DNA from: Basidiobolus ranarum | Taxonomy: Eukaryota | Length of the DNA: 33,535 bases | Direction: 5' to 3' | Assembly: GCA_040143965.1 (NCBI GenBank) | Contig: JASJQH010000073.1 | Coordinates: forward strand, 1-33,535 | Program-made: the position numbers and the translations under genes | In this document: piece after piece, positions 2,303-7,594 of the stretch | Position numbering within the stretch: position 1 is the first letter of the stretch | Layout: the number at the start of each line of letters is the position of its first letter | The notes under the pieces: generated by a model | Told to the model about the DNA's origin: nothing | The model's input: the letters and a program-made list of their open reading frames with translations, nothing else | Databases searched by the model: none

Positions 2303-2420
2303 TAATATCAATGAATGAAATAAATTTTGTTATAATACATATTTTATTTACGATAATGGAAAAACCTAAATGATAAAAATATCAGAAAATGTTCGTATAA
2401 GAAGCAGATTGGATAGTATG

Positions 2421-2520
2421 GATAAAAGCTCAGGAACCCTCGCGTATATGAGCGTTCGCGAAGTTATCGGCATAGTATAATCACGACTGGTGCCAGCAAG
2501 AACTCATCATTGCTTTTATC
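2421..2520 (-). ncRNA. Box C/D snoRNA with antisense element to 18S rRNA helix 18 (CUGGUGCCAGCA)
   Basis: Minus strand: perfect 9-bp terminal stem GATAAAAGC/GCTTTTATC, C box ATGATGA (2510-2504), 12-nt guide TGCTGGCACCAG (2498-2487), candidate D' GTGA (2484-2481), D box CTGA (2433-2430). Confidence 0.85.
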
Positions 2521-2701
2521 ATGTGGGTGAATATATCAAAGGTTCTTATTTACCTGGTGAGGCTTATTGCATCATAGTAACATAACGGCCAGATATTGAA
2601 CATGTGTTTGAAGTGTAGCTTATGCTTGATTACCGATTCCTAGAAGCAAATCGTTAGCATTGTGCATCAACGAGTTGGTTATAGCTTTCAAGAAGATATT
2701 A

Positions 2702-2765
2702 TCAGGTCCAAAATTTGTATAATCAATAAAAATTTCATGTGAAACACGGATTGGAAAAGCATCAT
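2702..2765 (-). ncRNA. Box C/D snoRNA, U18/snR18-region guide (LSU rRNA UGAAACACGGA)
   Basis: Minus strand: C-like ATGATGC (2765-2759), guide TCCGTGTTTCA (2750-2740), D' ATGA (2738-2735), C' TTGATTA (2726-2720), D CTGA (2705-2702). Intronic location. Confidence 0.75.
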
Positions 2766-2921
2766 TTAAAGCCGAGAGAAGTAGGTCAAAGACAAAGCTA
2801 ACTTACATTATTCCAGTAAGTACACGGTCAGAGTTGCTACGTTCATTTATATTTACAGAGCTAACTGTAAAAGAATATGATTAGAAATCAATGTTTGGAC
2901 TATCATGAATATGATATCTCT

Positions 2922-3036
2922 TAGTATTGAATGGTTATGAGTCAGGTGTAAGCTAGAGTAAAGTAGTTATCAGCAATGTTGTTCAGAAGCAGAACTGGCA
3001 AAACTTCGCTTTCATCACGGTAACCACTCAATACTA
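2922..3036 (-). ncRNA. Box C/D snoRNA, snR61/SNORD38-like, copy 1
   Basis: C GTGATGA (3018-3012); guide GCCAGTTCTGCTT complementary to LSU AAGCAGAACUGGC, followed by D' CTGA (2986-2983); C' TTGCTGA; D CTGA (2945-2942); about 16-bp terminal stem. Confidence 0.88.
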
Positions 3037-3179
3037 TGAAAATATCGGTTCACTTAGCAAGAATATACTTACTTTGTGCTTTGCTCAATTTACATACGGT
3101 AACAGGATTCAGTGAAGAAAATACTGAGCTAAATTTACTCGAAAGAATATTAATAAGAGTTCATAAATTTATCGAACTA

Positions 3180-3310
3180 TTGTGTCTTAGTAATGTTAGG
3201 TTACGAGTCAGGCGTAAGCTAGAGTAAAGTAGTTATCAGCAATGTTGTTCAGAAGCAGAACTGGCAAAACTTCGCTTTCATCACGGTAACCTTTCAATAC
3301 TAAGGCGCAA
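3180..3310 (-). ncRNA. Box C/D snoRNA, snR61/SNORD38-like, copy 2
   Basis: Same 77-nt core as copy 1 (C 3284-3278, D 3211-3208) with one substitution; diverged but still pairing flanking stem of about 25 bp. Confidence 0.88.
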
Positions 3311-3459
3311 TATCATTGCTTGGAAAAAATACTCACTTCATACATATTTGACTATACATTCGGCCATTGTGTTCTCCGTTGACGATTTCAGGTCACATAT
3401 ACATATATATATACTGTTAAAGAGAATATTAGTAAAAACTCATGTATTATGTAAGAGTC

Positions 3460-3590
3460 ACTATCTTAGTAATGAGTGGTTACGAGTCAGGTGTAAGCTA
3501 GAGTAAAGTAGTTATCAGCAATGTTGTTCAGAAGCAGAACTGGCAAAACTTCTTTTTCATCACGGTAACCATTCATTACTAAGTAATAGT
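3460..3590 (-). ncRNA. Box C/D snoRNA, snR61/SNORD38-like, copy 3
   Basis: Same core (C 3563-3557, D 3490-3487) with two substitutions near box C; flanking stem CTTAGTAATGAGTGGTTAC / GTAACCATTCATTACTAAG. Confidence 0.88.
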
Positions 3591-3744
3591 ATTTCTAGTT
3601 ATGAACTCTCATTTACCATTATTGCGGAATCGGTTACTCCATCGAGGACAAGGTCAAGGAAGGCATCTTCCAATATGGTTTAAGACCTGAAGTAAGATGC
3701 ATCATTAGGATTGGGGTTCAATATTGTTGAAAGTGATGAATAGT

Positions 3745-3856
3745 AATTGAGTGTTGGATCAGAAACGAGGAATTCCATTATGCGATTTTGACTCATCAAG
3801 ATACTTCCGAAGAAGCTCAGGGTATCAAGACGCGTTCTCTTCATCTCAACATCAAT
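3745..3856 (-). ncRNA. Box C/D snoRNA, snR57-like (18S Gm1572 equivalent)
   Basis: Minus strand: variant C GAGATGA (3847-3841), D' CTGA (3820-3817), UUCG-capped hairpin, C' TTGATGA (3799-3793), 13-nt guide GGAATTCCTCGTT complementary to 18S AACGAGGAAUUCC, D CTGA (3762-3759). The +5 rule hits the G of AACG. Terminal stem ATTGA-TGTTG/CAACA-C-TCAAT. Confidence 0.85.
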
Positions 3857-3910
3857 ATCTAGTGAATTAATAATGAATAAATATCTTACCTGTCTTAATA
3901 GTTGGAGTAT

Positions 3911-3950
3911 GGAAAGATACTTTTTGTCAACCTAATTTTTCAAATTTATA
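3911..3950 (-). promoter_or_regulatory. Candidate TATA box plus pyrimidine-rich (TCT/TOP-like) initiator of the snoRNA host gene
   Basis: Minus strand TATAAAT (3950-3944), followed about 34 nt downstream by CTTTCC (3916-3911), just upstream of the first 5' splice site CAG|GTAAG at 3889. Confidence 0.45.
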
Positions 3951-4325
3951 GATGTAAGCACAAATCTAACCCAGGGAACCCCAAGAATTCAAATCCACAT
4001 TCGACCAATCAATCGAGCCTTATACAATTCCGCGTTCATAATCGAGAATTAGTTTTTTTCGTTGAGGCGCGCTACATACTATGCCCTGTAATAGTATGAC
4101 ATTATTCGTATAGTAATGGGTTTGATATTTTTACCACAATTTTGATTCTTATGTAATGAGAATTTGGAATGTTAATAGTTAATTAGTCTAGTACATTCGA
4201 ATAACATTATTTCAGAACTATAATCATTTAATAATAGAAATATAAAATAAATTATGGTATGTTTCGATAATTCTGCATTCAGTTTATAATTTGATTAATT
4301 CATTAACAAGTAGTGCTAGAGGATT

Positions 4326-5364
<1,039 letters not shown>

Positions 5365-5740: not shown

Positions 5741-7594
5741 ATGTACGCCAAAGAAAGTAACCCCACACTTTTCCTAGGCGGAGAGCGTTCTACCGGACAG
5801 GATGTCAGAAGTCAAAATGGTAAACACTATTTTATGCTCAATGATTCCTCCTCCAGATGAATATTTTCTCTTGAACATCTTGATCTTGTAAACCGATAAT
5901 TTCTGAATCAGTACTAATTTATTCCACTTCTATGATGATTCCTTCATGCTTCAGTCTTGGCCGCCTCTTCCATCGCTAACATTGTGAAGAGTTCTTTGGG
6001 TCCAGTTGGATTGGACAAAATGATGGTTGATGATATTGGTGTAAGTATGCCTACTTCTTTATATTCCCATATACTTTACTCAACTTTTTTTATTTAGGAT
6101 GTCACTATTTCTAACGATGGTGCTACCATTCTCGGTTTACTTGAGGTAGAACATCCCGCTGGTCGTGTTTTGGTCGAACTTGCTCATCAACAAGATAAGG
6201 AAGTTGGTGATGGTACTACTTCAGTTGTAATCATTGCTGCTGAACTTCTCAAACGTGCAAATGAGTTAGTCAAGAACAAAATTCATCCCACTGTAATCAT
6301 CTCTGGTTATCGTCAAGCTTGCAAAGAAGCCTGCAAGTTTATTGCTGATAACATGACTACCAAGGTTGACTCTCTTGGCCGTGAATGCCTCATGAATGTT
6401 GCCAAAACCAGTATGTCTAGCAAGATTATTGGTGTTGACGATGAATTTTTCGCCAATATGGTTGTTGATTCTATGCTTGCCGTTAAGAATGTTAACGCAC
6501 GTGGTGAAGCCAAATATCCCGTTAAAGCAGTCAACATTCTTAAGGCCCATGGTAAGGGTGTTAAGGAGAGTATCCTCGTCGATGGATATGCTCTTAACTG
6601 CACTGTTGCCTCTTCTGGCATGAAGACTCGTATTCAAAATGCCAAGATCGCTTGCTTAGATATTAACCTCCAGAAGGCTCGTATGCACCTTGGTGTTAAC
6701 ATCTTGGTTGATGACCCGGATAAGTTGGAGGATATCCGTAAGAGAGAAATTGGAATCACCACTGATAGAATCAAGAAAATTCTCGACACCGGAGCTAATG
6801 TTGTCCTCACAACTAAGGGTATTGATGATCTATGCCTTAAGTGCTTTGTAGAAGCTGGCGCTATGGCTGTCCGTAGAGTTACCAAGGAAGATATGAGAAG
6901 AATTGCTAAGGCCACTGGTGCCACTATGATCTCTTCCCTTGCCAACTTGGAGGGTGAAGAATCTTTCGAGGAAAGCTATCTTGGTCATGCTGAAGAAGTT
7001 GTTCAAGAACGTATTTCTGATGATGAGTGCATCATGATCAAGGGAACTAAGGCACAGAAATCCGCATCTCTTATTCTTCGTGGTGCTAACGATTACATGC
7101 TCGATGAGATGGAACGCTCTCTTCATGATTCTATGTGCGTTGTTAAGCGTACTTTGGAATCCAACGTAGTCGTTCCTGGAGGTGGTGCTGTTGAGGCCGC
7201 TTTAAATATCCATCTTGAGAACTTCGCTATTTCACTTGGATCCCGCGAGCAACTTGCCATCAATGAATTTGCCACCGCTCTTCTCGTTATCCCCAAAACC
7301 CTTTCTGTGAATGCTGCCCAGGATTCTACAGAGCTTGTTGCCAGATTACGTTCCATTCACAATGAATCTCAAACTACTGATGATGAGGAGAAGAAATCGT
7401 TGAAGTGGCAAGGACTTGATTTGATGAAGGGCGAAATTCGTGATAGCTTGCGTGCAGGTGTTATGGAACCTGCCATGTCTAAGATCAAGTCACTCAAATC
7501 TGCCACCGAGGCTGCTATATCTATCCTCCGTATTGATGATATGATCAAGGTTATCCCCGAACAAAAAGAACAAAGAGACCCTCACGGTCACTAG
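5741..7594 (+). CDS. TCP1: T-complex protein 1 subunit alpha (CCT-alpha), 3 exons
   Basis: Exon 1 [26 protein letters not shown]; exon 2 [22 protein letters not shown]; long exon with [34 protein letters not shown] and [13 protein letters not shown]. Confidence 0.97.

Follow-up and report, generated by a model that had tools for sequence, protein, structure and literature searches.

A probable non-coding host gene for six intronic box C/D snoRNAs in the gap between a phosphatase and a proteasome gene of Basidiobolus ranarum

What occupies the apparently empty gap between a dual-specificity phosphatase gene and a PUP2-like proteasome gene of the fungus Basidiobolus ranarum? Both genes lie on contig JASJQH010000073.1 (assembly GCA_040143965.1), whose 33,535 nucleotides (nt) we analysed as a whole and refer to as the window, and the largest open reading frame (ORF) in the gap between them, both strands considered, has 63 amino acids (aa). 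Reading of the minus strand together with Rfam scans and an analysis of boxes and guides places six box C/D small nucleolar RNAs (snoRNAs) from four snoRNA families in positions 2320-3950 of this gap, the six cassettes counting as four families because three of them are paralogues of snR61. snoRNA boxes, guides, stems and the positions of splice signals are all present, and no coding ORF is evident. On the evidence of the sequence we consider it likely that the minus strand of the gap encodes a UHG-type host gene for snoRNAs with several introns and no protein product, as a first-pass annotation of the same DNA had proposed; the snoRNAs themselves, the splice signals and their spacing, the diverged exons and the apparent lack of coding potential all support this proposal.

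Scanning of the 33.5-kb window with Rfam at gathering thresholds returned three full-length matches to the snR61/Z1/Z11 family (RF00476, gathering score 45) on the minus strand and nothing else. These matches cover 3568-3484, 3289-3205 and 3023-2939 with 57.9, 53.9 and 54.8 bits and belong to snoRNA 2 (copy A, 3477-3571), snoRNA 3 (copy B, 3198-3292) and snoRNA 4 (copy C, 2932-3026), respectively, all six cassettes being encoded on the minus strand and numbered in its direction. snoRNA 1 (3752-3851), which we describe as snR57-like, has a terminal helix and the boxes C AGAUGA at 3846, D' CUGA at 3820, C' UGAUGA at 3798 and D CUGA at 3762. A second, permissive scan (E up to 10) matched snoRNA 5 (approximately 2699-2769) with SNORD18 (RF00093) at 2770-2698 (17.7 bits, E 5, below the gathering score of 41); its boxes are C UGAUGC at 2764, D' AUGA at 2738 and D CUGA at 2705, and it would be U18-like judging from an 11-nt guide to the U18 site and from an identical guide/D' string in three metagenome contigs (L069, L112 and L096). 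snoRNA 6 (2421-2520) contains C UGAUGA at 2509, D' GUGA at 2484, D CUGA at 2433 and a 9-bp terminal stem. Its match to Afu_190 (RF01498) at 2512-2429 (24.7 bits, E 0.025) is below the gathering score of 35, yet its guide core can be aligned, as can boxes C and D, and we therefore call it snR80/Afu_190/Nc-CD43-like and not a certified member of the family. Afu_190 has its guide in common with Schizosaccharomyces pombe snR80 and Neurospora crassa CD43. The count of exactly one C/D cassette per intron given by the first-pass annotation holds in all six cases, with a CUGA D box in every cassette and a terminal or external helix of 5-16 bp in five of the six. The cassettes look like bona fide box C/D snoRNAs, and stable RNAs associated with fibrillarin would be predicted from them.

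To which sites in ribosomal RNA (rRNA) would these cassettes be directed? As a reference we used two contaminant ribosomal DNA (rDNA) contigs that were found by a scan of a prokaryote genome collection with an internal transcribed spacer 1 (ITS1) primer and annotated with Rfam: L039, in which the 18S is complete and the large subunit (LSU) rRNA extends over the first 2260 positions of the model, and L005, with a complete LSU. All target positions given here follow the numbering of L039. A viral contig that came from a separate scan of viral contigs with the same primer was set aside as a reference because of its abnormal 912-nt 18S match, and a second primer scan for an rRNA reference gave no match. 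Eukaryotic rDNA (18S-5.8S-LSU, by Rfam) contaminates many of the bacterial and archaeal assembly records among L002-L053, for instance L039, L047, L005 and L015, and the LSU of L005 holds a group I intron.

Measured against this contaminant reference, each cassette contains one strong exact antisense element directly upstream of box D or D', with lengths of 13, 13, 13, 13, 11 and 12 nt for snoRNAs 1 to 6, which agrees with the elements of 11-13 nt claimed initially. The nucleotides opposite the fifth guide position are 18S G1578 for the 13-nt guide at box D of snoRNA 1, LSU A1146 for the 13-nt D' guides of snoRNAs 2-4, LSU A660 for the 11-nt guide of snoRNA 5 (or A661, with the box one base earlier) and 18S G564 for the 12-nt guide of snoRNA 6, the last two guides adjoining the non-canonical D' boxes AUGA and GUGA. 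The first of these targets is presumably the snR57 site, 18S Gm1572 in Saccharomyces cerevisiae; the sole support in our data for the snR57 label of snoRNA 1 is that the same guide heads snR61 clusters at other loci. For the remaining guides the homologous sites of Neurospora crassa are 26S-Am1114 (snR61), 26S-Am635 (U18) and 18S-Gm559 (S. pombe snR80), all of them served by D' guides (Liu et al. 2009, Table 1, PMC2780460), and the target of Schizosaccharomyces pombe snR80 is given as 18S Gm565 by Diao et al. (2014, PMC4138321).

Complementarity alone proves nothing, because antisense matches of at least 11 nt are common, with about 100 antisense 11-14-mers to these rRNAs in the window on both strands. 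The rare feature is the placement of such a match next to a box. At the 247 control CTGA sites in the window outside the locus, complementarity immediately upstream stays below 11 nt throughout (10 nt, reached once, is the longest); inside the locus, 4 of the 17 minus-strand CTGA sites have 13 nt. In the second guide regions (D' of snoRNA 1; D of the snR61 copies, snoRNA 5 and snoRNA 6) no match of 10 nt or more to the rRNAs used was found, the best candidates reaching 9 Watson-Crick and 2 G-U pairs with one mismatch. These regions, including 3820-3840, may be spacers, or may be guides for small nuclear RNAs, transfer RNAs or variants of the rRNA of B. ranarum.

Are the cassettes enclosed by introns? 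The six minus-strand intervals to which the first-pass annotation had assigned them all begin with GT and end with AG and measure 203, 203, 208, 208, 167 and 188 nt. Intron 1 (3687-3889) runs from GTAAGA through CCTAATG to CAG, and both of its ends are the best sites of the splice models described below; intron 2 (3414-3616) combines GTAAAT, TACTAAT and CAG; intron 3 (3129-3336) has GTGAGT, TATTAAT and TTTAG, with an alternative 5' splice site, GTATAG, at 3357; intron 4 (2865-3072) has GTAAGT, TTCTAATC and ACAG; intron 5 (2640-2806) has GTAAGT, TGCTAACG and CTAG; and intron 6 (2366-2553) has GTAAAT, TTCTGATA and TTTAG. A branch-like motif had been claimed for each intron, and in this respect the sequence goes most of the way: 14-21 nt from the AG we find CTAAY in four of the six introns and CTGAT in one (intron 6), but merely TTAAT in intron 3.

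The 5' splice site, the branch site and the 3' splice site were each described by a position-weight model trained on 18 putative introns in coding genes of this window, and the models were scanned over the sequence from 5 to 90 nt upstream of each snoRNA and from 25 to 100 nt downstream. The best site of the model coincides with the annotated coordinate at the 3' splice site in all six introns and at the 5' splice site in five of six, and the combined Fisher p over splice sites is 1.6e-4. The coding introns are 55-135 nt long (median about 59), start with GTA (once GTG) followed by variable bases, and contain CTAAY, CTAAA or CTGAT as branch motif 5-18 nt from YAG (examples are the genes at 4594-5190 on the minus and 1641-2188 on the plus strand). 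In the proteasome gene, the removal of four introns leaves a coding sequence with a clean frame of 729 nt and 242 aa. Compared to the coding median of about 59 nt the host introns are long (167-208 nt), and the excess corresponds to the length of a snoRNA. In addition, the snoRNAs are evenly placed within their introns, 31-47 nt from the 5' splice site and with 57-70 nt from the snoRNA end to the 3' splice site in all six, and the chance of six best picks falling within such a 14-nt band is about 0.003 by rough estimate. Hirose and Steitz (2001) reportedly found the assembly of mammalian box C/D particles to be sensitive to the spacing between snoRNA and branch point. Intronic snoRNAs of N. 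crassa mostly lie 41-60 nt from the 5' splice site (PMC2780460).

But why would one locus carry three copies of snR61? The three paralogous modules are spaced 266 and 279 nt, and comparison of the three shows hardly any change in the snoRNA and partial retention of the branch/3' region, whereas their exons cannot be aligned. The three snR61 introns probably stem from the tandem duplication of one complete unit of intron and exon, approximately 270 nt long. The intronic flanks of the copies form external helices, which span 3586-3462 (copy A), 3307-3183 (copy B) and 3041-2917 (copy C) on the minus strand. Copy A combines a 7-bp terminal stem with an 11-bp external stem, copy C has a terminal/external helix of 16 bp, and the helix of copy B is weaker; the fold z-scores are -3.9, -2.1 and -3.2 for copies A, B and C, respectively. 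Two compensatory changes are found among the copies: at the outer end of the stem one copy has T-A and another A-T, and in the external stem copies A and C differ by an A/T swap that is accompanied by a matching change on the opposite arm. The string TACTAAG that follows each snR61 copy is one arm of the external helix and not a branch site.

The exons left between the introns are tiny and show no evident ORF, just as the first-pass annotation had stated. Exon 1 (3890-3925) is modelled with a 5' end that is a guess, about 25 nt after a TATA-like box; exons 2 (3617-3686), 3 (3337-3413), 4 (3073-3128), 5 (2807-2864) and 6 (2554-2639) measure 70, 77, 56, 58 and 86 nt; and exon 7 (2320-2365) has an approximate 3' end with putative polyadenylation. 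The modelled spliced RNA (from about 3925 to 2320) amounts to 429 nt. Its longest ATG ORF of 48 aa is within the range of shuffled sequences, and its longest open frame is 59 codons compared to 51 +/- 14 in 1000 shuffles, a length reached by 26% of these. The gap ORFs of 54 aa (minus strand) and 63 aa (plus strand) have no Pfam match, and a coding reading of the gap was set aside. Within exon 2, 11 nt of the minus strand (3665-3655) are exactly antisense to 18S (position 419) and are not followed by a D box; the match is probably due to chance, because about 100 such matches occur in the window.

The TATA-like box TATAAAT, detected by a regular-expression scan at 3944-3950 of the minus strand, precedes the first 5' splice site by about 55 nt and is a candidate promoter element. 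Homol-D and Homol-E boxes of the fission-yeast type were searched for within 3880-4400 and none was found. At the other end, an AATAAA is read at 2348-2343 within exon 7; this exon and the phosphatase gene are convergent, their 3' ends facing each other. The latter is encoded on the plus strand with its stop codon at 2300-2302, and its exons match Pfam DSPc and DSP-PTPase below threshold. Farther away in the window, the plus-strand ORF 6353-7594 carries the source name chaperonin-containing T-complex alpha subunit Cct1; the 413 aa queried are 100% identical to a 553-aa B. ranarum protein, with the next match (81%) in Basidiobolus meristosporus.

Several points speak against a spliced host gene of functional snoRNAs and have to be weighed. 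The 18 training introns of the splice models were chosen by ORF continuity alone, and the proteasome gene is the only one confirmed to be clean. The individual signals are weak and degenerate, with empirical p values per site of 0.015-0.35 (5000 random anchors), and the weak signals include the branch motifs of intron 3 (TTAAT) and intron 6 (CTGAT). At the 5' end of intron 3 the model favours GTATAG at 3357 over GTGAGT at 3336, which makes this site ambiguous; we have retained 3336 because the module alignment puts it in register with 3072. On the side of the snoRNAs, the C box is the canonical UGAUGA in four of the six cassettes, snoRNAs 1 and 5 having the variants AGAUGA and UGAUGC, and snoRNA 5 is without a convincing terminal stem. 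The Rfam check that had been called for gave a mixed answer, in that the three snR61 copies exceed the gathering score, whereas snoRNAs 5 and 6 stay below threshold and snoRNA 1 has no match at E up to 10. Moreover, the guides were tested on plant-like and fungal contaminant rRNAs and not on that of B. ranarum itself. Finally, none of the 117 metagenome matches listed in our search resembles the window beyond the snoRNA core, so that there is no close relative among them.

Could the six introns then belong to a long 3' untranslated region (UTR) of the upstream proteasome gene, with a protein-coding messenger RNA (mRNA) as the host? This PUP2-like alpha-subunit gene (Pfam PF00227 matches) is encoded on the same strand and in tandem order with the snoRNA introns, its stop codon lies at 4326-4328, and the idea retains some standing because 437 nt lie between the end of this gene and the first host 5' splice site on that strand. 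It would also conform to S. pombe, where most box C/D snoRNAs located in introns belong to UTRs or to non-coding genes (PMC4138321). However, a TATA-like box lies at 3950, within a less AT-rich stretch that separates the proteasome gene from the snoRNA unit, and the 3' flank of the proteasome gene is AT-rich like an ordinary terminator region. In addition, introns in a 3' UTR expose an mRNA to nonsense-mediated decay, and six of them would place an essential mRNA at this risk. We therefore judge such a host to be unlikely. Somewhat similar in standing, and likewise improbable in our estimate, if anything a little more so, is an unspliced polycistronic precursor from which the snoRNAs would be cut by an RNase III-type endonuclease and exonucleases, as in S. 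cerevisiae and in plants, the GT and AG dinucleotides then being chance occurrences or relics. The weakness of the single splice signals fits this idea, the long external helices at the snR61 copies could be platforms for cleavage and processing, and three of the metagenome matches listed (L067, L137 and L156) look unspliced. Splicing has been lost from such clusters in Hemiascomycetes (PMC3596301), but the same paper places the unspliced clusters in these intron-poor fungi and relates them to intron density, while the genome considered here is intron-rich, with four introns in the 729-nt proteasome coding sequence alone. An unspliced precursor would not readily account for the finding that the splice model picks flanking sites at every snoRNA (six of six at the 3' and five of six at the 5' side, with the combined p given above), nor for the regular distance of 57-70 nt to the 3' splice site.

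That the gap contains no functional gene at all, and holds decayed snoRNA pseudogenes or chance arrays of motifs, is hardly credible to us. The variant C boxes in two cassettes would fit decay, yet the three snR61 copies score above the Rfam gathering score with boxes and guides intact, stems have been kept by compensatory changes, comparable guides occur at 0 of 247 control CTGA sites, and each of the four targets is a site whose methylation is known to be conserved.

Taking the non-coding host gene as the most suitable explanation, we infer transcription, splicing, a route of processing and methylation of rRNA as follows. RNA polymerase II would start just downstream of the TATA-like box at 3950 and transcribe approximately 1.6 kb, from which the spliceosome would remove the six introns of 167-208 nt. 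After debranching, exonucleases would shorten each excised intron as far as the box C/D small nucleolar ribonucleoprotein assembled on it, and the spliced exon RNA of about 430 nt would be a by-product. Products of the gene would be one snR57-like RNA for an 18S Gm site and three near-identical snR61 RNAs for an LSU Am site, in addition to one U18-like RNA for an LSU Am/Cm site and one snR80/Afu_190-like RNA for an 18S Gm site.

How does such a gene compare with known systems? The snR57-snR55-snR61 cluster, or fungal cluster II, for which Mitrovich et al. (2010, Science) are reportedly also cited, shares with the B. ranarum locus the order of snR57 first and snR61 later, the single strand, one snoRNA per intron and short, apparently non-coding exons. 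It differs in that the B. ranarum locus has three snR61 copies and appended U18-like and snR80-like introns, and belongs to an early-diverging (zygomycete-grade) fungus. Cluster II has been reported across Ascomycota, Basidiomycota and Rhizopus (PMC3596301). For the snR55 guide the whole window offers 7 loose matches, none of which adjoins a D box. Of the trio snR57, snR55 and snR61, the locus has an snR57-like RNA and snR61 in the expected order and is without snR55, and on its sequence it would be filed as a variant of cluster II.

The introns of vertebrate UHG/GAS5/SNHG genes yield the functional products, as those of B. ranarum would, with one box C/D snoRNA each and with non-coding exons, the vertebrate UHG-type host gene being reportedly known from Tycowski et al. 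(1996). The introns of B. ranarum are far shorter, however (167-208 nt), and no sequence relationship of the exons is seen or expected. The unspliced polycistronic clusters of the S. cerevisiae type, which Qu et al. (1999) are said to have described, likewise link the same snoRNA families on one transcript; unlike the units of B. ranarum, which are all bracketed by splice signals, they are without such signals, and their processing relies on RNase III and exonucleases. Experiments in S. pombe (PMC4138321) and N. crassa (PMC2780460) have established the one-snoRNA-per-intron layout in fungi to which the first-pass annotation had appealed, and it recurs in the metagenome contigs L069 and L096; among fungi that do not belong to the Saccharomyces lineage it is the norm. 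The UHG-like clusters I-VII of S. pombe are spliced, start at a single site and carry a poly(A) tail (Diao et al. 2014, PMC4138321). They resemble the proposed gene as non-coding multi-intron hosts with box C/D snoRNAs arranged head to tail, snR80 and snR61 being members of the S. pombe repertoire, and they differ from it in the Homol-D box, absent upstream of the B. ranarum locus (3880-4400). For the UHG-like hosts of N. crassa, splicing was proven by reverse transcription PCR, and alternative splicing and polyadenylation were seen (Liu et al. 2009, PMC2780460). Likeness extends there to one snoRNA per intron, short ORFs only, canonical flanking splice signals, a similar distance from the 5' splice site and, for CD38 (snR61), CD46 (U18) and CD43 (snR80), the use of D' guides. 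In the parts of the same source consulted, however, these three snoRNAs are not described as sharing one host, and the B. ranarum locus is known from its sequence alone. A literature search of a limited collection retrieved no snoRNA work on Basidiobolus, and the fungal snoRNAome paper in it does not include the genus.

Relatives of the locus were sought in metagenome contigs. A lineage-specific snR61 pattern occurs in 0 contigs, and a broad one (C box, gap, guide and D' box) in at least 117 loci, which were classified by simple guide motifs. Among the 117 matches listed, 108 contain snR61 only, 4 have snR57 followed by snR61, 2 have snR57, snR61 and U18 (L069 and L112), 1 has snR61 followed by U18 (L096), 1 has snR61 followed by snR57, and 1 (L156) has three snR61 copies spaced 146 nt apart without intron signals. 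The guide of snoRNA 1 with its D box heads snR61 clusters in 6 of the 117 matches listed and follows snR61 in a seventh. When the protein of the spliced proteasome gene was used in a tblastn search, none of these 117 proved to be a syntenic locus. L067 and L137 resemble the unspliced clusters of budding yeast and L151 a Candida-type spliced cluster. At 2250-2650 of L156, two of the three tandem snR61 copies have a T-to-A change in the guide, and this contig represents a different, unspliced style of snR61 amplification. L069, L112 and L096 contain snR57, snR55, snR61 and U18 in that order, with a U18 guide and D' string downstream of snR61 that is identical to that of the window, and on reading of L069 and L096 each snoRNA stands between GT and AG signals. 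The GC content of L069 and L112 is low and that of L096 is 40%. At 6800-8150 of L069, the AG of the intron before the U18 intron abuts the next GT with zero exon between them, a junction that resembles the snR57/snR55 arrangement of S. pombe described by Diao et al. (PMC4138321).

The snR57-(snR55)-snR61-U18 linkage is found in the window and in three of the 117 unrelated metagenome matches listed. A tentative interpretation, to which we would give somewhat less than even odds, is that the locus is a snapshot of the growth of a snoRNA host gene, in which an ancestral linkage of this kind predating the Dikarya was followed by loss of snR55, gain of an snR80 intron and formation of two new introns by module duplication, with the helices kept by compensatory changes. 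What is new is the host organism and the make-up of the gene only, namely the absence of snR55, the triplication of the snR61 module and the appended U18 and snR80.

The understanding of snoRNA host genes is unchanged by this locus. For B. ranarum it fills an annotation gap with six rRNA-methylation guides and their probable carrier gene, and it contributes an observation from a zygomycete-grade fungus on how old the snR57-snR61 linkage and the snR80/Afu_190 guide are, as well as a tidy case of module triplication inside a host gene. If the proposed history is true and all three snR61 copies are expressed, the locus would be a non-coding gene that has gained introns through segmental duplication, by which the dose of one methylation guide is raised.

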